From a virus (taxonomy: Duplodnaviria; Heunggongvirae; Uroviricota; Caudoviricetes): 7,698 nucleotides of DNA. Each line of letters starts with the position of its first letter. Positions within the stretch are counted from its first letter, which is position 1. Shown piece after piece: positions 1 to 7,681 of this stretch. The notes below the pieces were generated by a model. It was not told the DNA's origin and did not search any database. It saw only the letters and a list, made by a program, of their open reading frames with translations. Location of the stretch: IMG/VR virus record IMGVR_UViG_2734482594_000023. The stretch is one strand, 5' to 3'. A program made the translations under genes and the position numbers.

Positions 1-459
1 TTATTCAGTCGGCAGTGCTACGCGCCAGGGGAGCAGTTCGCCGACCCGGTTTATCGGCCAGTCGGCTATGACGTCAAGGACATAGCGGAGGTAGCTTTCT
101 GGCTCCACTCCGTTCAGTTTGCACGTCCCGATCAGGCTGTACAGCAGCGCTCCCCGCTCTCCTCCATGATCCGAACCGAAGAACAGGTAGTTTTTGCGGC
201 CCAGACTGACCATCCGCAACGCATTTTCAGCGATGTTATTGTCCGCCTCAGCCCAGCCATCATCTGCATAGTACGTCAGCGCCGGCCACTGGTTCAGGGC
301 ATATGCGAACGCTTTCGCCAGTTCTGAGTGTCGCGACAGGGTTTTCATCTTTTCACGCAGCCAGCTTTCCAGGGATTTCAGCAGCGGTTTCGTTTTCAAC
401 TGACGTTCGGCAAGGCGCTGTTTCAGCAGGAAGATGTCGTCAGAAGAGATGTCGTTCAT
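1..459 (-). CDS. IS66-family transposase, C-terminal fragment (truncated remnant)
   Basis: The 152-aa ORF carries the conserved C-terminal block of IS66-family transposases (...DNNIAENALRMVSLGRKNYLFFGSDHGGERGALLYSLIGTCKLNGVEPESYLRYVLDVIADWP...ELLPW). The upstream in-frame sequence hits a stop at 520-522, so the N-terminal two-thirds of the transposase and the other IS66 genes are absent on this side. Confidence 0.8.
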   Translation of the reverse strand: MNDISSDDIFLLKQRLAERQLKTKPLLKSLESWLREKMKTLSRHSELAKAFAYALNQWPALTYYADDGWAEADNNIAENALRMVSLGRKNYLFFGSDHGGERGALLYSLIGTCKLNGVEPESYLRYVLDVIADWPINRVGELLPWRVALPTE

Positions 460-677: not shown

Positions 678-1415
678 TCATTCACTCTCTTTCAAACCAG
701 TTTTAACTGTTTGTGGTTTTGGGTAAGGCTGGACTTTGAATAGCTTTGTGTTAAGGCGTTTTCTGGCTCTCTTGTCCAGAAACCGGATGTAACGAAACTG
801 ACGGAATTTATGAACACTGGCTCTGTCGATATTAGCCCGCAGATGTTCACCTCGCTGTCCTCCTCGTTTGATTGCATTCTTGCAAATCTCGTGATACCAC
901 TCGCCATCAAGTTCATAGAATGTTGTTTCATGACTGCCTACATAATCAAAATTGCTTGCCTGGTACACGACACCAAGACAGCCACAACGCTCATCTGCAA
1001 ACGACTGAACCCACTGCACCTGCGGATAAAGTTGTCTGATTAGTTTGAGCGCGTAACTGATTGCCCTTGATTCGGAGTTTCTCGGCATACAGTCATGCAG
1101 CCATAACCGGTTAAGCTCCATATATTCGCGGTTCTGCGTGCCAGTTACGACGCGTGCACCATTGTTTGGATTAAGGGCATAACCCCATTGCATTACGCCA
1201 ACCAGCTCCCGTTCTGAAAATATGCCCAGATGAAGGTAGGAATTATTTACGAAACGATGGCTGTAATGTTTATTGACGACGACCAGCCGGGCCAGCCAGC
1301 AACTTATTGTCTCAACCCGTAACTCACGGGAGCCATAACCGACGATATTGTCGTTATAGTGAATAAGTTCAGGCGTGCTGATGATACGGGATGTAACTTG
1401 CTTTCTGTTCCCCAC
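678..1415 (-). CDS. mom: Mom-family DNA modification protein (adenine carbamoylmethylation, acyltransferase-like); start codon uncertain
   Basis: The ORF lies immediately downstream of, and overlapping, a Com-type zinc-finger gene, as in phage Mu. The proposed GTG start at 1415 gives 245 aa, close to Mu Mom (about 231 aa as I recall), has AAGGAAA 7-9 nt upstream, and sits in the 3' arm of a hairpin. The ORF track extends to a GTG at 1610, which I regard as over-extended; an ATG at 1577 is an alternative. Confidence 0.75.
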
Positions 1416-1569
1416 GACAGGATTTCCTTGTGTATGTGGGGTGCTCTGTGGCGCTCTGAGATGTGATTTGATTGAGGGTTTTACAGCGCGGACATTTAAC
1501 TTCCAGATAACTGAAGCTGGCTCGTGCCAGTAGCTTGTTACAATGTCGGCACCGTATGTTTCGATACAT
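1369..1569 (-). CDS. com: Com-family zinc-finger translational activator of mom
   Basis: The 66-aa product [33 protein letters not shown]... has a CxxC...CxxC zinc-finger layout like Mu Com. AGGAGG lies 10 nt upstream of the ATG at 1569, and the 3' end overlaps the mom start region by about 46 nt. The track's TTG start at 1614 is rejected. Confidence 0.8.
1410..1441 (-). promoter_or_regulatory. mRNA hairpin sequestering the mom GTG start, with the Shine-Dalgarno in the loop (putative Com-responsive translational operator)
   Basis: On the minus strand, CCCCAC (1441-1436) pairs with GTGGGG (1415-1410). The 20-nt loop contains AAGGAAA, and the GTG at 1415-1413 lies in the 3' arm. Confidence 0.45.
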
Positions 1570-1610
1570 GGCCGCATAACCTCCTGCTTTGTTGTTGATA
1601 TCTTTATCAC

Positions 1611-1702
1611 TCAATCGATCGACAAAAACGATCGATTTGATTTATTTAATTGATACAACAAATAACACGAAATGTCATTAGCGAAAATTTATGAGTTTGA
1701 TC
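1611..1702. promoter_or_regulatory. AT-rich divergent control region upstream of com/mom with clustered Dam (GATC) sites and an inverted repeat
   Basis: GATC occurs at 1617-1620, 1630-1633 and 1699-1702. The imperfect inverted repeat TCAATCGATCG-ACAAAAA-CGATCGATTTGA spans 1611-1640. In Mu, mom transcription is controlled by Dam methylation of upstream GATC sites (OxyR binding) and by C-protein activation. Confidence 0.4.
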
Positions 1703-1825
1703 ACTAATTTTAAACGGTGCTGTAACGCATAAGTGCTGAATGATTGTACATTTGAATACCGCAAAGCAAACAAATCAACTAATTTATAGAAGTCAATTGG
1801 TTAATTGCCAGCGTAAGAGGCTGCT

Positions 1826-2119
1826 ATGGACAATCATGTAACGACGAGAAATCGAAAAATGATTGAAAATGCGGAAATCTATAATGATTATTTTTCCGAT
1901 TATTCAGATGCCTGCAAATACAGTTCGAGTGCGGGAGAGTTCATATGCTTCAACTTTTTTATTAAATCTTATGTTTTTCCTCCACAGCAAGAAGATGGAG
2001 GTGTGCCACCTCCTGAAATCACTTTGCACCGTATAGCCTCCGTCTCAATGATGGAGCAACAGGCTAATGAGCTGTATAGCATTCTGGGAACGATTCTACA
2101 AAAGCGTGAATCGGACTAA
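1826..2119 (+). CDS. Hypothetical protein, 97 aa (low-GC orphan gene)
   Basis: ATG at 1826 is preceded by AAGAGG at 5-nt spacing and the frame is open for 97 codons. The gene is AT-rich compared with its neighbours and divergent from com/mom. I recognise no motif. Confidence 0.5.
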   Translation: MDNHVTTRNRKMIENAEIYNDYFSDYSDACKYSSSAGEFICFNFFIKSYVFPPQQEDGGVPPPEITLHRIASVSMMEQQANELYSILGTILQKRESD

Positions 2120-2286
2120 TGATACCGGTTCATTTGCCTGCCCGGATGGGGAAGCAGGATTGACTGCTCCATAAGCAGCTATATTTCTGAATACGAAATA
2201 CTATCCAGCGATTACATATGGCTGGATAGCGGCAAAGATGTTTTCATTAGTGTCAAACCGGCAGAGGACACCACCGGTTTGTATTG

Positions 2287-2541
2287 TTACATCATGGTAC
2301 TGTCAGTTCCGGGCTGAGCCGGGTCTGGTTGCTCTGGCTGCGCGTCGGTTTTCGGCTCATTATCAGCATCACTGGCCGCAACTGCTGGCCCAATAAGTTT
2401 TGCCAGCACTTCATCAACGTAAGTGTCGATTTGTGCCTCAAAATCCTTGCGGACCTGCGCTTTCAGCAACTTATTTACTTCACCGGAATACAGTGCCTGT
2501 TTTACCAGGTCTTCAGTGACGGTGCCTTTAATTTCTGGCAT
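2287..2541 (-). CDS. Hypothetical acidic protein, 84 aa
   Basis: ATG at 2541 has a strong AAGGAGG 7 nt upstream. The product is net acidic (about 16 D/E against 8 K/R) with a Pro/Asp/Glu-rich tail. It lies 35 nt downstream of the small membrane-protein gene, consistent with an operon. Confidence 0.65.
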   Translation of the reverse strand: MPEIKGTVTEDLVKQALYSGEVNKLLKAQVRKDFEAQIDTYVDEVLAKLIGPAVAASDADNEPKTDAQPEQPDPAQPGTDSTMM

Positions 2542-2576
2542 GTATATCCTCCTTATGCGGGAATAAAGCCCTGCAA

Positions 2577-2759
2577 TCAGGGCTGGGTCGGGTCTTTTGG
2601 GAGCGGAGTTACCTGCGCTGTTTTACTGAGTTTTTCAGCTGCTGCGTCCTCAATTTTGCGGCGAACATAATTTCTGATGGCCTTATAACCACCACTCACC
2701 AGATATAACGCACATACTGCCGTGCAGAAATACAATAAAATAAGCTGTAAAAATGTCAT
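2577..2759 (-). CDS. Small single-pass membrane protein, 60 aa
   Basis: ATG at 2759 is preceded by GGGAGGG. The product MTFLQLILLYFCTAVCALYLVSGG has one hydrophobic helix followed by a basic, charged tail (KAIRNYVRRKIED...). The track's TTG start at 2771 is rejected. Confidence 0.55.
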   Translation of the reverse strand: MTFLQLILLYFCTAVCALYLVSGGYKAIRNYVRRKIEDAAAEKLSKTAQVTPLPKDPTQP

Positions 2760-2774
2760 TATCCCTCCCAATTA

Positions 2775-2801
2775 TTGACATGGTGTTGACACCGGTAATA
2801 T
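2775..2801 (+). promoter_or_regulatory. Putative sigma70-type promoter on the plus strand, overlapping a 12-bp palindrome
   Basis: A perfect TTGACA at 2775-2780 is followed by a 15-nt spacer and TAATAT at 2796-2801. A second TTGACA lies at 2786-2791, and GGTGTtgACACC (2782-2793) is palindromic. The short spacer is a weakness. Confidence 0.3.
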
Positions 2802-2855
2802 CTGTTAGGTAAAAAGGTGCACTGCATTTTTTGCTTTGGATATAACGATCTTTTT

Positions 2856-2896
2856 GCCGCCGGTTTCTTGTTTTCCCTTACCGGCGGCATTTTTTT
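2856..2896 (+). terminator. Rho-independent terminator, oriented for the plus strand
   Basis: GCCGCCGGT (2856-2864) pairs with ACCGGCGGC (2880-2888) around a 15-nt loop and is followed by T7 at 2890-2896. On the minus strand the stem is followed by AAAAAG, so it is not a good terminator for the esterase gene. Confidence 0.5.
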
Positions 2897-2903
2897 ATCC
2901 TGC

Positions 2904-4440
2904 TTACGCGTTATTCACTTCCACCACGATACTGTCAATCAGTACCGGGTAAGTCGCATTTTTAGTGATATCGGTCACGCGCAACTTGTCTGCCGTAAAC
3001 GTGCCGACCGGAGACTGCGACAGCATGAATGGTGTCCCGTCCTTACCATCAANNNNNNNNNNNNNNNNNNNNNNNNNNNNNNNNNNNNNNNNNNNNNNNN
3101 NNNNNNNNNNNNNNNNNNNNNNNNNNNNNNNNNNNNNNNNNNNNNNNNNNNNNNNNNNNNNNNNNNNNNNNNNNNNNNNNNNNNNNNNNNNNNNNNNNNN
3201 NNNNNNNNNNNNNNNNNNNNNNNNNNNNNNNNNNNNNNNNNNNNNNNNNNNNNNNNNNNNNNNNNNNNNNNNNNNNNNNNNNNNNNNNNNNNNNNNNNNN
3301 NNNNNNNNNNNNNNNNNNNNNNNNNNNNNNNNNNNNNNNNNNNNNNNNNNNTGAGCCTTGCCACCTCCGGCAGCCCAACCCTGTGGTGTCAACCGTCCTT
3401 CAGACTCAGATGCCCGGTAAGCAAATAGCGTACTCATCGTCGTGGTGTCTGCGGGTGGCGTGGACGGTTTTGATGGTGTATCAGGTGACGGCTTCTCATC
3501 CGGTGGTGTCACGGTCTGCCCACGCATCAGTTCAGCCGTGCGCCCTGCATGGAGCATAATAGCTGAGGCCAGACGGTCTGAAATGACGCCCCTGCGTGCC
3601 CATGAGCTGAAATGGCTGTCACGCTGTGTCGAAACAAAACTGCCCTGGGTTCGGGATGCTGCACCGTAATACCCGACAGCCACAATATCCGGGTCTTCCG
3701 CCGGAGCATTCGTTGGCGTGCNNNNNNNNNNNNNNNNNNNNNNNNNNNNNNNNNNNNNNNNNNNNNNNNNNNNNNNNNNNNNNNNNNNNNNNNNNNNNNN
3801 NNNNNNNNNNNNNNNNNNNNNNNNNNNNNNNNNNNNNNNNNNNNNNNNNNNNNNNNNNNNNNNNNNNNNNNNNNNNNNNNNNNNNNNNNNNNNNNNNNNN
3901 NNNNNNNNNNNNNNNNNNNNNNNNNNNNNNNNNNNNNNNNNNNNNNNNNNNNNNNNNNNNNNNNNNNNNNNNNNNNNNNNNNNNNNNNNNNNNNNNNNNN
4001 NNNNNNNNNNNNNNNNNGCGGTCAAACGAATCCGGTAACGGCAGCCCCTCGCCGTAGGCCATGCCATTTGACTGACCCGCGAGAATGACAACAAAGTAAT
4101 ATTCCGGCTCTGAACTGCTGCCATTCGTGCTACCGGAAGGCCCGGCGTTATCCGGTGCATTCCAGTCGGAGGGCGTGAGCGTTCCGGCCACGTCAGATGT
4201 GATTGGAATGATGCCAGTCACGCCTGAACTGGTGATTTCTGCACTGGGATTACCGGATACCGGCATTACCCATAATGGCTCTTTCGTGCTGAAGCGGATC
4301 ACGCAGTCTGCGAAGGTGATCCCCCCTTTATTACCCGAAGGGCGGAAAGGGCTTTCAATAAATGCCACCGTGCCACCGGCAACCTTGACTGAAAACTCTC
4401 CGGGCATGGCGGAGAGCATTTTCCACTTGGAGTCTGACAT
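2904..4440 (-). CDS. NanS-like sialate O-acetylesterase (SGNH/SASA-type) with an N-terminal extension and a C-terminal Pro/Thr-rich linker plus extra domain; frame ambiguous across masked blocks
   Basis: The N-terminal part (4440->4018) contains YYFVVILAGQSNGMAYGEGLPLPD, the GQSN nucleophile block of SASA/NanS esterases. After the mask, TNAPAEDPD...GYYG...SHFSSWARRGVISDR continues the esterase in a different frame, followed by TPPDEKPSPDTPSKPSTPP and a C-terminal region ending at the TAA at 2904. The span (1537 nt) is not a multiple of 3, so either a frameshift lies in 3722-4017 or the masking is not length-exact. Confidence 0.65.
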
Positions 4441-4516
4441 CGTCTTTTCTGCCTGTTTCTGAATTAAACAGAGTCAGAATAGCGACCGCTGAAAAATATG
4501 TGTTTTGCGGAAATTC

Positions 4517-4544
4517 AAAAAAGCGTCACGGTACTTTTGGTGAC
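4517..4544 (-). terminator. Weak hairpin plus U-run at the invertase stop codon
   Basis: On the minus strand, GTCAC (4544-4540) pairs with GTGAC (4529-4525) across a 10-nt loop, followed by GCTTTTTTG. The stem is short. Confidence 0.25.
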
Positions 4545-5136
4545 GGAGCTGGTGAGGCAGGAAAATAACGATAAAGGNNNNNNNNNNNNNNNNNNNNNNN
4601 NNNNNNNNNNNNNNNNNNNNNNNNNNNNNNNNNNNNNNNNNNNNNNNNNNNNNNNNNNNNNNNNNNNNNNNNNNNNNNNNNNNNNNNNNNNNNNNNNNNN
4701 NNNNNNNNNNNNNNNNNNNNNNNNNNNNNNNNNNNNNNNNNNNNNNNNNNNNNNNNNNNNNNNNNNNNNNNNNNNNNNNNNNNNNNNNNNNNNNNNNNNN
4801 NNNNNNNNNNNNNNNNNNNNNNNNNNNNNNNNNNNNNNNNNNNNNNNNNNNNNNNNNNTTGTCCGTAATGCTGCGGAAGTTAACGCCGCGTTGCCGGAGT
4901 TCTTCTGTTAAAAGGACAAGGTGCTGCATACTGCGTCCAAGGCGATCCAGTTTCCAGACCAGCAGGGTATCCCCTGGCCGGAGTCGCTTTAATGCGCGTT
5001 TAAGTCCGGGACGCTCCCTTGTCTTACCGCTTATTCTGTCTTCGAAAAACAGCTCACATCCTGCACATTCCAGCGCATTTCTTTGTAGCGCCGTATTCTG
5101 GTCATTTGTTGACACCCTGATATACCCAATCAGCAT
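4526..5136 (-). CDS. Site-specific DNA invertase, serine recombinase (Gin/Pin/Cin/Hin family); C-terminal frame differs from the ORF track
   Basis: The N-terminus MLIGYIRVSTNDQNTALQRNALECAGCELFFEDRISGK...LLVWKLDRLGRS is a canonical resolvase/invertase catalytic domain. Left of the mask, the frame reading LYRYFPASPAPSPKVP* (stop at 4528-4526) matches the Hin-type C-terminal helix-turn-helix tail (STLYRYFPAS). The track frame ending at 4474 is rejected. The span is not a multiple of 3 if the masked block is length-exact. Confidence 0.8.
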
Positions 5137-5430
5137 NNNNNNNNNNNNNNNNNNNNNNNNNNNNNNNNNNNNNNNNNNNNNNNNNNNNNNNNNNNNNNNN
5201 NNNNNNNNNNNNNNNNNNNNNNNNNNNNNNNNNNNNNNNNNNNNNNNNNNNNNNNNNNNNNNNNNNNNNNNNNNNNNNNNNNNNNNNNNNNNNNNNNNNN
5301 NNNNNNNNNNNNNNNNNNNNNNNNNNNNNNNNNNNNNNNNNNNNNNNNNNNNNNNNNNNNNNNNNNNNNNNNNNNNNNNNNNNNNNNNNNNNNNNNNNNN
5401 NNNNNNNNNNNNNNNNNNNNNNNNNNNNNN

Positions 5431-5613
5431 TATATCCAGGATATCAGGCTGGGAGCAGAGAACAGGCAGGTAATGTACGGTGGGGCATATTACTCTGCGT
5501 ACGGTAATGTTATGGCAGGCCTGCAGATTGACAGTAAAGTTGATGCTTCAAACGATTTTATAGCATTCAGACCCCTGCAAAAATTAGTCGGAGGTACATG
5601 GATTACGGTATCT
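5431..5613 (+). CDS. Alternative tail-fibre C-terminal tip (S'v-type variable exon), 5' end masked
   Basis: The frame is open from the mask edge to the TAA at 5611-5613: ...GAENRQVMYGGAYYSAYGNVMAGLQIDSKVDASNDFIAFRPLQKLVGGTWITVSQL*. Its tail shares the RPLQ..L..G.W.T motif with the minus-strand fibre tip (...[22 protein letters not shown]). Confidence 0.6.
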
Positions 5614-5673
5614 CAGTTATAAATAGTCAGTAAATAATATATTTTAAAACAGATTTATTTCCAGGAGGATTTT

Positions 5674-6195
5674 ATGGAACTAAAAAATATAACCCGTTAT
5701 TATCCTGAAAATATGCCATATGGTAATAATGTTCAGTATTTCCAGAGTGAAGATGGTAAGGATTTCTACGAATCCCTGCCATTATTCACCAAAAAATATA
5801 AACTTTGCATAACACCTGACAGCGGCGTTATCTGCTCAATATCACAGGACGCCTCGGCGCTGTATCCTGCGGGGTTTTCTGTGGTTGAGGTCGATGAACT
5901 CCCTGAAGGCACGGATATTTCAGGAAACTGGAAGTTTGATAATGGCATAATCTCCCGTATTCCGGTTAACTACGCAAGAAAACTGGAAGCAATGCGCCAG
6001 TCATATCTTAATCAGGCATATGAAAAAATTAATGACTGGAGAACGGAGCTACAACTGGGCACCATCAGCGATGAAGACAGAGCAGCACTTACCCAATGGA
6101 TGGCATACATCAGTCAGGTGAAGAAAATGGAACTACCCGCCATTAAAACAGAAGCTGAATTTAACGCCATTAAATGGCCTGAGCAGCCACAGTAA
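5674..6195 (+). CDS. Tail fibre assembly protein (Tfa / Mu U / P2 G-like chaperone)
   Basis: ATG at 5674 has AGGAGG 5 nt upstream. The 173-aa product sits 60 nt after the alternative fibre tip, and its size, position and C-terminal region (...WMAYISQVKKMELPAIKTEAEFNAIKWPEQP) fit the Tfa family. Confidence 0.75.
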   Translation: MELKNITRYYPENMPYGNNVQYFQSEDGKDFYESLPLFTKKYKLCITPDSGVICSISQDASALYPAGFSVVEVDELPEGTDISGNWKFDNGIISRIPVNYARKLEAMRQSYLNQAYEKINDWRTELQLGTISDEDRAALTQWMAYISQVKKMELPAIKTEAEFNAIKWPEQPQ

Positions 6196-6198
6196 TAA

Positions 6199-6218
6199 AG
6201 AAGGCCGGAAGGCCTTCT
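6199..6218. terminator. Perfect hairpin between convergent tfa and tail-fibre genes (probable terminator for the fibre transcript)
   Basis: AGAAGGCC (6199-6206) pairs with GGCCTTCT (6211-6218) around a GGAA loop. On the minus strand the stem is followed by UUAUUACU. It lies 8 nt beyond the fibre stop and 3 nt beyond the tfa stop. Confidence 0.5.
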
Positions 6219-6226
6219 GAATATCA

Positions 6227-7108
6227 TTATATACTTGCAGCCGTCACCCATGCTCCATTTAACAGATACTGCAACGGCCGGTAATACACGCCGCCGACGT
6301 TATCTGCCGTATTCTTACCGACATCCTGTACTTTAATTCCGGTAAGAACATTGCCGCCCCCCAGATTCAGATCCCAGCTTTCCCATGTTCCGGGCATATG
6401 TGCGGTCACCGACCCCAGTCTTATGGCGGTTACTGTTCCTGATGAGATAGTGATATCCTGCGTCCCGTCAAAGGGAACACCATTAATTGTGTGGGCATTT
6501 GCCAGCCTGTTCGCGGCAACGGCGGTGCCGTCCGATGGCAGGGCATTCGCCGCCCTGTTTACCGTTTCCCGTAAACCGACGTTATCGATAAAAGCCCCTT
6601 TATCCGGAATGTCTGCGCCGTTCTGCTCCCTGCGCAGGTAACGGTTATCACCTTCGCTTTTGCTGTAAACATCCAGATTATTACGGGCGGTTCCCTTATT
6701 CTCCAGGTCGGCGAGATTCTGATCCTTCGCCAGGGCATTAACGTCAGCGGGACCAAGACTGTTTTTTGTGGCAAGCGTCCCCAGACCAAGATAACCACGG
6801 GCCAGACGCTGGGCCTCCGCACCGGCATCAGCAATTTCTTTCAGGTTATTTTTCCGGGAAAAGGCATTCGCAGCGATAATGGCTTTAATGGACAGCGTAA
6901 GCTGGTTTAACTGCGCCTTATCCGGCTGAATACTGGCTTCAGCCAGAATATTCAGCAGTTCGGCCTGGAGAATATTCAGCCAGTCCTGACCAATCCAGCT
7001 GATACCTTTTTGTCCGTCACCTTCGGTAAACCAGGTGGTGGTATTACTCTGCGCCGGTGCCAGCGCAGGCATATTCGCCACGCCGGAATTATTATCAACA
7101 TGAAACAT
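6227..7108 (-). CDS. Tail fibre protein (constant N-terminal part plus variable C-terminal tip in its current orientation)
   Basis: ATG at 7108 has GAGGAGA 8 nt upstream, 15 nt after the stop of the upstream baseplate gene. The 293-aa product has an N-terminus [18 protein letters not shown]...WFTEG...[15 protein letters not shown] that I read as the fibre type found in Mu/P2-like phages (from memory), and the crossover site falls in the codons for FIDNVGLRE. Confidence 0.8.
6566..6591. other. gix/hix-like 26-bp recombination (crossover) site for the serine invertase
   Basis: TTCCCGTAAACC-GA-CGTTATCGATAA compared with Mu gixL TTCCTGTAAACC-GA-GGTTTTGGATAA (as recalled) matches at 22 of 26 positions with the same half-site/2-bp core layout. 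It lies inside the tail-fibre ORF at the constant/variable junction. Confidence 0.6.
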
Positions 7109-7123
7109 TAAATAGTCTCCTCT

Positions 7124-7681
7124 TCATGGCTNNNNNNNNNNNNNNNNNNNNNNNNNNNNNNNNNNNNNNNNNNNNNNNNNNNNNNNNNNNNNNNNNNNNN
7201 NNNNNNNNNNNNNNNNNNNNNNNNNNNNNNNNNNNNNNNNNNNNNNNNNNNNNNNNNNNNNNNNNNNNNNNNNNNNNNNNNNNNNNNNNNNNNNNNNNNN
7301 NNNNNNNNNNNNNNNNNNNNNNNNNNNNNNNNNNNNNNNNNNNNNNNNNNNNNNNNNNNNNNNNNNNNNNNNNNNNNNNNNNNNCGAGGGCTTCATCCGG
7401 TATTTATTTCCGGCATAACGCTGTCGCTCCGTGAGGGTGGCTCCGGCCATATCACACTCGGGAAGCCCGAGATAACGCTCCCAGTCTTCCAGCAGCAGGC
7501 GCGACGTGTCAGGGAAACGCTCGGCAAGCAGCTGTTTACCCGTCCAGGATACACGCGCTGTCGAATGACTGAGGCCCAGACATAATGATGCCAGTACGGA
7601 TGACGGACGCTTGTCCCATGCCAGCCCGTCAGGCAGTAACTGCAACAGGGCGCGCTGATGCGGGGTCAGGGTTACAGCCAT
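7124..7681 (-). CDS. Phage baseplate/tail protein (P2 gpI / Mu gp48-like, DUF2313-type); C-terminal half masked
   Basis: ATG at 7681 has AGGAGA 7 nt upstream. The N-terminus MAVTLTPHQRALLQLLPDGLAWDKRP...LLEDWERYLGLPE resembles the gpI/gp48 family. The gene sits directly upstream of the tail-fibre gene, as in P2 (I-H-G) and Mu (48-S-U). The TGA at 7126-7124 is in frame only if the masked block is length-exact. Confidence 0.65.
   Translation of the reverse strand: MAVTLTPHQRALLQLLPDGLAWDKRPSSVLASLCLGLSHSTARVSWTGKQLLAERFPDTSRLLLEDWERYLGLPECDMAGATLTERQRYAGNKYRMKPSXXXXXXXXXXXXXXXXXXXXXXXXXXXXXXXXXXXXXXXXXXXXXXXXXXXXXXXXXXXXXXXXXXXXXXXXXXXXXXXXXXXXXP

Follow-up and report, generated by a model that had tools for sequence, protein, structure and literature searches.

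A NanS-p-type esterase cassette with a Mu-lineage N-terminal domain between gin and com of Escherichia coli Mu-like prophages

Introduction

In bacteriophage Mu the invertase gene gin is followed directly by com and mom: in the reference sequence (AF083977) gin ends at position 35673 and com starts at 35768, and the 94 bp between them hold the late mom promoter alone. The gin-mom region of phage SfMu, a 1.5-kb PCR product, is consistent with this layout. A 7,698-nucleotide stretch of DNA from a Caudoviricetes phage (IMG/VR record IMGVR_UViG_2734482594_000023, hereafter the window) departs from it in that gin no longer stands immediately before the mom promoter and com, approximately 2.85 kb in window coordinates, or approximately 3.37 kb once unmasked, lying between the two genes. 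What occupies this interval, and does it belong to the prophage lineage as a fixed part or serve as a site at which accessory genes are exchanged?

A preliminary description of the window, drawn from its letters and open reading frames (ORFs), had already set the direct succession of gin and com-mom in Mu against some 2.8 kb of extra genes here, and the measurements above agree with it on both counts. It saw in these genes an esterase, a small membrane protein with an acidic partner and a low-GC orphan on the opposite strand, and proposed a moron or a defence/anti-defence hotspot. NanS-p esterases are fitness- and virulence-associated cargo of Shiga-toxin (Stx) phages and have so far been described in lambdoid prophages, Stx and non-Stx alike. 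The analysis presented here indicates that the gin-com interval is very probably the Mu-like-prophage version of the lambdoid/Stx NanS-p cassette, and a fixed accessory module rather than a hotspot.

Results

The interval encodes a NanS-p-type sialate O-acetylesterase

Five N-masked runs interrupt the window (3053-3351, 3722-4017, 4578-4858, 5138-5430 and 7132-7384), and ORF frames and lengths read across them are unreliable. The unmasked reference was locus L001 of E. coli strain DLI.5a, relative to which the runs do not have their true lengths (runs of 299, 296 and 281 N replace 419, 694 and 242 nt, respectively); about a dozen complete E. coli genomes, 100% identical to the window outside the masked runs, have 3519 nt where the window has 3001 (positions 1500-4500). 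The interval first described as 1620-4440 exists, but its true edges lie at approximately 1673, where similarity to the Mu-type mom regulatory region starts, and at approximately 4525, the base before the gin stop codon as mapped from L001.

Foremost among the genes of the interval is that of a 684-residue NanS-p-type sialate O-acetylesterase (2904-4440, minus strand). The enzyme body (2904-4113, minus strand, partly under the N runs 3053-3351 and 3722-4017) is made up of a SASA catalytic domain (residues 110-430; Pfam E=1.5e-13), a proline-rich linker and a lectin-like DUF6645 domain (residues 469-684; Pfam E=7e-68), the latter varying between 40 and 100% identity across loci. E. coli NanS (PDB 3PT5) matches residues 110-428 at E=1.8e-117, with AGQSNGMAYGEG and RDSHFSS aligned, and the structure of the lectin-like C-terminal domain of phi24B NanS-p (PDB 6YP6) matches residues 469-683 at E=7e-98; the protein matches phrog_143 at E=1.7e-296. 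The esterase of the preliminary description is thereby borne out. Its catalytic motifs, namely the GQSN nucleophile block and the R-x-S-H block IV of NanS-type enzymes as defined in PMC10462455, are conserved, and by homology the catalytic domain is predicted to remove O-acetyl groups from sialic acids (Neu5,9Ac2, mucin O-glycans). Lambdoid NanS-p homologues have been shown to act as esterases on Neu5,9Ac2, to free mucin glycans of O-acetyl groups and to support the growth of lysogens on the sugar (PMC8065619). No signal peptide was detected in the window esterase, and lambdoid NanS-p carries none either. A frameshifted pseudogene was considered and rejected, the change of frame coinciding with a masked run of non-native length and L001 holding one 684-aa ORF.

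The esterase body was found by tblastn in 349 of 50,697 phage records at 55-67% identity, nearly all of them Stx-converting or lambdoid E. coli phages. The closest known enzymes are the NanS-p proteins of Stx and lambdoid prophages, among them those of 933W (z1466/L0105) and phi24B (gp84, or vb_24B_21); in one case, that of the lambdoid prophage of E. coli 8178 (WP_086522863.1), identity reaches 91% over residues 99-684 with zero gaps. The differences lie in the setting and at the N-terminus. Lambdoid copies sit in lambdoid phages between Q/stx and the holin gene, whereas the cassette described here has gin and com on either side in a prophage that is transposable, Mu-like and of myovirus type, and its esterase adjoins Mu Gp48, baseplate and tail-fibre genes, not a lambdoid late region; and where lambdoid proteins begin with DUF1737, the window protein begins with an unrelated β-domain of about 80 residues.

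DUF1378 and DUF826 accompany the esterase

The small membrane protein and acidic partner of the preliminary description proved to be a DUF1378 and a DUF826 protein. The former (2577-2759, minus strand; 60 aa; Pfam PF07125, E=1.2e-31; phrog_494) has a single predicted N-terminal transmembrane helix (hydrophobic residues 3-21; mean Kyte-Doolittle value of 2.27 in the best 19-residue window, which starts at residue 3), a basic tail and a pI of 9.3. The latter (2287-2541, minus strand; 84 aa; Pfam PF05696, E=6.4e-16; phrog_311) is acidic (pI 4.2) and soluble. Their Pfam scores, 109.1 and 58.7 bits, respectively, stand against a gathering cut-off of 25 for each. Just past the DUF826 stop codon is a stem-loop (2255-2280, minus strand; stem AAACCGG...CCGGTTT) that aligns in five prophages, across which substitutions occur on both arms.

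The same three genes follow one another in lambdoid phages. Phage TL-2011c reads stxA, stxB, esterase, DUF1378, DUF826, holin, lysozyme, and the lambdoid prophage of E. coli 8178 reads esterase, DUF1378, DUF826, holin, lysozyme, Rz1; since both order and orientation match those of the window, the bulk of the island can be assigned to the known NanS-p cassette. DUF1378 and DUF826 precede holin in these phages and were considered as parts of a lysis cassette, an assignment that found no support here, as in the Mu-like prophages they stand with the esterase and no holin is nearby. The literature search yielded essentially nothing on the function of either family. Estimates of dN/dS (0.10-0.14 for the esterase, 0.14-0.32 for DUF1378 and 0.085-0.22 for DUF826, that is, about 0.09-0.32 overall) indicate that all three genes are maintained by selection.

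The triad is constant across the Mu-like lineage

Forty-three loci carrying the esterase with the Mu-type N-terminal domain were annotated by tblastn; they come from E. coli genomes, a Mu-like phage inside an Stx2c phage, contigs with a diverged orphan, a Salmonella contig and 34 IMG/VR contigs. The esterase-DUF1378-DUF826 triad was present in all of them (43/43), and wherever the flanks are present the order is [fibre-tfa-(second fibre end-gin)]-esterase-DUF1378-DUF826-slot-com-(mom or C5 cytosine methyltransferase), with two hybrid loci as the exceptions. About ten loci are without gin (and the second fibre end), and four end in dcm where most have mom as the terminal modification gene. The suggestion that the whole island is a variable hotspot is therefore not supported; the comparison that the preliminary description had proposed, of content between gin and com, did reveal variation, confined to a slot of approximately 0.58 kb between conserved flanks, the rest being constant. 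The same description held that its reading would fail if related Mu-like phages all had this gene content together with essential-gene annotations, and the 43/43 constancy of the triad comes near to that, except that no essential-gene annotation was found and Mu lives without the triad.

Indeed, a Mu-type life cycle is possible without the triad, since the invertase adjoins com/mom in Mu and likewise in Edwardsiella (L006), Ca. Pantoea (L018) and an enterobacterial metagenome-assembled genome (MAG; L005); all the same, the natural E. coli lineage has the triad as a fixed part. The loci L006, L018 and L005 are the only informative ones from a cross-species contig survey seeded on Mom, whose matches lay mostly in unrelated contexts, one of them by a dnd-like cluster and another in a Yersinia lambdoid late region. 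The Salmonella contig, which reads gin, two small ORFs and then an esterase whose N-terminal domain is 29% identical, points in the same direction as the fixation in E. coli. Among 5,426 complete E. coli genomes, N-terminal domain allele A (the window type) was found in 28 genomes at 39 places and allele B (the O157 type) in 205 genomes at 246 places, together 233 genomes and 285 places. The com-mom segment was likewise found in 233 genomes at 285 places, and these counts fit a one-to-one association of com with the Mu-type N-terminal domain.

A lineage-specific N-terminal domain takes the place of DUF1737

The N-terminal module of the esterase (4114-4440, minus strand) comprises an all-β domain of about 80 residues (4198-4440) and a disordered linker (4114-4197). 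The 8178 lambdoid protein carries DUF1737 at this place (E=2.7e-15), and it is at the linker that similarity between the two proteins ends. The first 82 or so residues of the window protein gave no Pfam match even at E values up to 1, DUF1737 included, and a direct comparison with DUF1737 by hhalign returned a probability of 0.5%. Exhaustive phmmer searches of 1.84 billion representative proteins retrieved only fragments of the same protein (E. coli) and one partial Salmonella protein, as did word-indexed protein searches with the domain or its alignment. The domain is modelled by AlphaFold2 (AF2) with pLDDT values of 74-90 over residues 1-70 and 68 over residues 71-80; fold searches with it were uninformative. 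Among all phage records it occurs in two, both with an inserted Mu-like phage, and its Salmonella homologue (29% identity) is likewise part of an esterase gene with a SASA domain, located after gin in a Mu-like prophage.

The domain thus replaces DUF1737 and was found only in Mu-like prophages. Because the 91% gapless identity to the 8178 copy stops at the linker and the N-termini differ, the enzyme body has moved recently between lambdoid and Mu-like phages, with each type keeping its own N-terminal domain.

A candidate small RNA gene lies antisense to the esterase-DUF1378 junction

A feature overlooked in the preliminary description is a small RNA (sRNA)-like gene at approximately 2816-2897 on the plus strand. 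With its promoter the unannotated candidate spans 2786-2897 (plus strand) and is antisense to the intercistronic region of the esterase and DUF1378 genes. A -35 element (TTGACA, 2786-2791) and an A-rich -10 element (approximately 2809-2815) precede a putative start at approximately 2816-2819, mapped from PasC; the predicted RNA of about 80 nt ends in a 10-bp GC hairpin (2855-2864 / 2880-2889) and a U7 tract (2891-2897), the end of which abuts the esterase stop codon at 2904-2906. Its minimum free energy is -25.6 kcal/mol (z=-4.0).

This architecture recalls PasA and PasC, validated Hfq-dependent sRNAs of the enteropathogenic E. coli (EPEC) strain E2348/69 (coordinates in Table S6 of PMC8550237), which correspond to EcOnc51/52 in enterohaemorrhagic E. 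coli (EHEC). Each of the two lies on the opposite strand from a SASA esterase gene and directly 3' of it, PasC running from 1290909 to 1290832 and the adjacent esterase ending at 1290830, so that the RNA finishes two bases off the esterase stop; a Pas preprint likewise describes an esterase-PasA-holin arrangement. The candidate shares with them this antisense position, a terminator at the esterase stop, a TTGACA -35 element, a length of about 80 nt and a GC hairpin followed by a U-tract. In a seven-locus alignment of the window, PasC, PasA and four other loci the -35/-10 and terminator columns align, and the consensus fold has compensatory changes in 6 of 10 stem pairs. The 5' two-thirds of the RNA are unrelated, however, so that any seed and targets would differ, and the setting here is a Mu-like prophage. 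The element is a probable sRNA gene of the PasA/PasC type with a different seed. A link in cis to the esterase transcript is plausible given that PasA chimeras in EPEC include the 3' ends of esterase mRNAs (PMC8550237). Rfam returned no match to a Pas family. Identity with Esr41, an sRNA encoded on SpLE1, was considered and rejected, its Rfam scores being far below threshold; a similarly weak Esr41 match (28 bits) was obtained at the syntenic place in lambdoid TL-2011c, in the same relative orientation as in the window.

Variation is confined to a slot next to com

In an alignment of five prophages, conservation extends through the DUF826 stop codon and its stem-loop, gives way to unrelated sequence and resumes from approximately 1672. 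The variable slot so delimited (1673-2254, not assigned to a strand; approximately 0.58 kb, GC 0.39) has at least three or four alternative contents among the 43 loci, and these reassort independently of the esterase allele. One is the 97-aa orphan, either as in the window or in a form 79% identical to it; another is a 154-aa ORF with a Zn-ribbon-like motif (phrog_26524) that is frequently frameshifted or truncated; a third combines a 66-aa ORF with a truncated 154-aa ORF; and in a fourth the 66-aa ORF stands alone.

The window's own orphan (1826-2119, plus strand) encodes 97 residues, or 86 from an internal ATG in RefSeq, and its product is acidic (pI 4.7). It is as the preliminary description had it, on the opposite strand and of low GC content (0.40 vs 0.50 for the prophage), and it has no match in Pfam, PHROGs, NCBIfam or PADLOC. 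Its homologues are limited to E. coli and Shigella, the most distant of them being 79% identical and located in the same slot.

Between gin and esterase the Salmonella contig (L027, ABQUQB010000040.1, 7426-7910) carries an ORF of 58 aa (phrog_6330) and one of 87 aa with a weak Xre-like helix-turn-helix (phrog_20491); together they may make up a small pair of toxin-antitoxin or regulatory type. The contig stops within the esterase.

Cassette alleles and the com-mom end have separate histories

Sp18, a prophage of E. coli O157:H7 Sakai and by prediction an intact Mu-like phage (PMC2669165), has the same succession from ECs_4992 (gin) to ECs_4998 (mom): gin, esterase, DUF1378, DUF826, an opposite-strand slot ORF, com and mom. 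It differs in carrying the other allele, with 67% identity in the esterase, 72-76% in DUF826/DUF1378 but 97% in Mom, and in that its slot is occupied by the 154-aa Zn-ribbon-like ORF (phrog_26524) where the window has the 97-aa orphan. Between the window and the O157 allele dS is 1.75 (saturated) in the esterase and 0.23 in mom, from which it follows that the cassette alleles are old and that the com-mom end was exchanged recently.

In some Mu-like prophages the gene after com is not mom but encodes a C5 cytosine DNA methyltransferase (L003, 9420-10472, Pfam DNA_methylase E=2e-42; also L050, L057 and L061), so that the enzyme under Com control is itself exchangeable.

At the two hybrid loci from IMG/VR (L033, 754-6036; L038, 3545-12691) Mu-like fibre, tfa and gin genes and a Mu-type esterase are joined to a lambdoid part. 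The junction is at the 3' end of the esterase, and the lambdoid side consists of DUF1378, DUF826, holin, lysozyme and Rz. In L038 the displaced DUF826-orphan-com-mom piece is found inverted 5 kb away on the same contig, a layout that would fit an inversion by recombination between two prophages. Together the hybrid loci suggest that Mu-like and lambdoid prophages recombine through the cassette they have in common.

The flanks are those of a Mu-type right end

Beyond the interval, Gin and Mom are 75% and 78% identical to their Mu counterparts, and as in Mu the prophage finishes just past mom (prophage end near 555). The genes mom (678-1415, minus strand; Pfam Mom, E=1.6e-77) and com (1369-1569, minus strand; Pfam Zn_ribbon_Com, E=7.5e-13; annotated by RefSeq in the identical copy L001) overlap, the zinc-ribbon regulator and the Mom-family gene being placed at the prophage end as in a Mu-type right end. 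Upstream of com is a conserved mom-operon regulatory stretch (1613-1672, minus strand), defined by alignment with the gin-Pmom-com region of Mu and four E. coli Mu-like prophages, in which a palindrome with two GATC sites (AATCGATCG...CGATCGATT) is retained next to a remnant like the terminal bases of Mu gin (ATCAATTAAA). The GATC cluster is closer to the start of com than in Mu (about 50 nt vs about 75 nt). Megablast similarity to Mu-like phage DNA stops at window position 1664.

The mom frame remains open for about 65 codons upstream of its annotated start, overlapping the whole of com in another frame (1369-1614; 678-1610, minus strand), and a strong AGGAGG upstream of com lies closer to an ATG of the mom frame (4-5 nt) than to the com ATG as annotated (13 nt). 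In the Enterobacteriaceae MAG (L005, 4066-10705) a Mom homologue of 79% identity directly follows a serine invertase; its neighbours appear, by inspection only, to be DNA phosphorothioation (dnd-type) genes and not Mu tail genes.

On the other side of mom, beyond the prophage end, the window holds the C-terminal part of an IS66-family transposase (1-459, minus strand; Pfam DDE_Tnp_IS66, E=5e-29; IS66_C, E=2e-17). The identical DLI.5a copy interrupts the host gene ypdB instead, which restarts about 130 bp past mom in L001; the window prophage is therefore inserted elsewhere, which is to be expected of a Mu-like phage that transposes.

The gin-type serine invertase gene (approximately 4526-5136, minus strand; masked at 4578-4858) shows its 75% identity to Mu Gin over residues 1-92 and is named "recombinase family protein" by RefSeq in L001 and L026. 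DLI.5a has a frameshift in this gene and FORC_069 an intact copy, and masking hides its state in the source of the window. Next to it are a tail-fibre assembly gene (5674-6195, plus strand) and a 293-aa fibre gene (6227-7108, minus strand), both in an invertible tail-fibre segment, and a Mu Gp48-type baseplate gene (7124-7681, minus strand). The segment (window 5431-7108) holds a single assembly gene between two alternative fibre ends. It was found in both orientations among near-identical prophages (L041, L046, L048, L062, L065 and L066 compared with L001 and others) and is thus probably an active invertible G-like segment.

Discussion

The identity of the parts, their synteny, their fixation in the lineage, purifying selection, the domain swap and the variability of the slot are direct observations, and they are best accounted for by a NanS-p cassette that very probably became a stable accessory module of Mu-like prophages. 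On this account, the esterase is a three-part enzyme, with a lineage-specific N-terminal β-domain, an SGNH/SASA catalytic domain and a C-terminal lectin-like domain. Its co-directionality with the tail-fibre operon, gin, com and mom and its lack of a signal peptide suggest that it is made late and, either when the cell lyses or as part of the particle, would gain access to O-acetylated sialic acids in host mucus. Its catalytic and lectin domains, which together form the enzyme body, are exchanged by recombination between lambdoid and Mu-like prophages while the N-terminal domain stays with the phage type. The companions, DUF1378, DUF826 and the antisense sRNA candidate of PasA/PasC architecture, travel with the esterase in both types of phage, leaving as the true variable part only the 0.58 kb or so bounded by the stem-loop after DUF826 and the mom regulatory stretch.

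Several observations weigh against this account. Some lambdoid esterases, such as that of E2348/69 PP2, have no DUF1378 and DUF826 alongside, and the Mu-like variant L025 is without the sRNA gene; the companions are therefore separable from the esterase. The body of the sRNA candidate has no clear sequence similarity to PasA/PasC outside the promoter and terminator, and its Rfam match to Esr41 reached 22 bits against a threshold of 102. A consensus promoter and terminator scan found promoters no commoner than in shuffled controls and did not find a driver for the cassette. The 285/285 match between com and the Mu-type N-terminal domain in complete E. coli genomes is one of totals and not of pairwise adjacency. 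Lastly, the literature search returned nothing on an esterase in Mu-like phages, nor on ECs_4993-4996 of Sp18.

Could the interval instead be a landing pad for the swapping of immunity and counter-immunity genes, of which the orphan would be one? The slot by com does carry unrelated, reassorting ORFs in different prophages, it adjoins an anti-restriction operon whose enzyme varies between Mom and a C5 cytosine methyltransferase, and the Salmonella relative has its small Xre-like pair between gin and esterase. Gene content is nevertheless constant in about 85% of the interval across the lineage, slot ORFs are often frameshifted or truncated, and the orphan is weakly constrained (omega 0.40). 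The defence locus of the preliminary description also found no backing in PADLOC-DB 2.0, a library of defence-system models that does not speak to the anti-defence half of the idea; it returned no significant match for any of the three cassette proteins, the orphan or the ORFs of alternative slots, the sole match being that of DUF826 to PbeC at E=0.0076; nor did NCBIfam return anything useful for the island proteins. We regard a landing pad of this kind as improbable for the interval, and a defence or anti-defence role as a possibility left for the 0.58-kb slot alone. Whether the orphan is a gene at all is a further question. It might be a chance persistent frame in an AT-rich spacer with perhaps only com/mom regulatory signals: it belongs to no family and has no homologue beyond E. 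coli and Shigella, nothing else in the region is as weakly constrained (dN/dS 0.40), some of its copies in databases are truncated (P0016-P0019), and its start codon differs between the RefSeq and the ORF-based calls. On the other hand, the frame stays open at 13% DNA divergence where the five other frames have 3-11 stops, a good ribosome-binding site (AAGAGG) lies 6 nt ahead of the ATG, and substitutions are biased toward synonymous changes (dS 0.29 vs dN 0.12). A chance frame is accordingly the less favoured explanation, though one that retains some weight, and the orphan is probably a real gene under weak constraint.

A further explanation concerns what the esterase does and would refine the cassette account rather than replace it. 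According to a preprint (bioRxiv 10.64898/2026.04.10.717836), the phi24B homologue gp84 is an abundant virion protein, and its DUF1737 forms a hexamer on capsid hexons. By analogy, the N-terminal domain described here might fix the esterase to the capsid or tail of Mu-type particles, in which case the enzyme would have a structural or decoration role in mucus adherence or receptor access, and not be a moron of benefit to the lysogen; NanS-type esterases would then be a cargo enzyme shared among phage morphotypes and displayed by way of interchangeable N-terminal adaptors, DUF1737 serving on capsids of the phi24B type and the present domain on Mu-like phages. The swap against the DUF1737-bearing lambdoid copy falls exactly at the linker of a body that is otherwise 91% identical. 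The domain occurs only with Mu-like morphogenesis genes, in 43/43 loci, 2/2 phage records and the Salmonella homologue, and the gene stands directly downstream of, and co-directional with, the tail-fibre region and encodes no signal peptide, all of which would suit a virion protein. Against this, the phi24B evidence is from a preprint and concerns a phage of different morphology, and plain vertical inheritance would equally give a lineage-specific association. Both the adaptor function of the domain and the docking of the enzyme are hence put forward tentatively.

With respect to what is new, the cassette, the prophage family and the RefSeq domain-name annotation of most of the interval were already known. 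The Mu-lineage N-terminal domain with its clean swap against DUF1737, the presence here of an unannotated PasA/PasC-like gene and the definition of the small slot were not. The view of the island as the likeliest home for anything undescribed therefore holds for the N-terminal domain, the orphan slot and the sRNA candidate, most of the rest being the known NanS-p module; other than on these points, the region is ordinary accessory phage DNA.

Were the docking explanation correct, the de-O-acetylation of mucus and sialoglycans would be a particle-borne function selected in unrelated temperate gut phages, and the N-terminal domain could be used as a small portable tag with which to decorate Mu-type virions. 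The clean N-terminal swap is in this respect a natural experiment on whether the N-terminus is a morphotype-specific anchor, provided that the phi24B result holds. About 4% of complete E. coli genomes (233/5,426), many of them O157, O26, O103 and O111, carry a further NanS-p copy on a Mu-like prophage, and counts of nanS-p alleles that rely on DUF1737 or on a lambdoid context would overlook these copies. The shared cassette may, moreover, serve as a recombination bridge between Mu-like and lambdoid prophages residing in one chromosome, and as such bears on the prophage-driven rearrangement of EHEC genomes.

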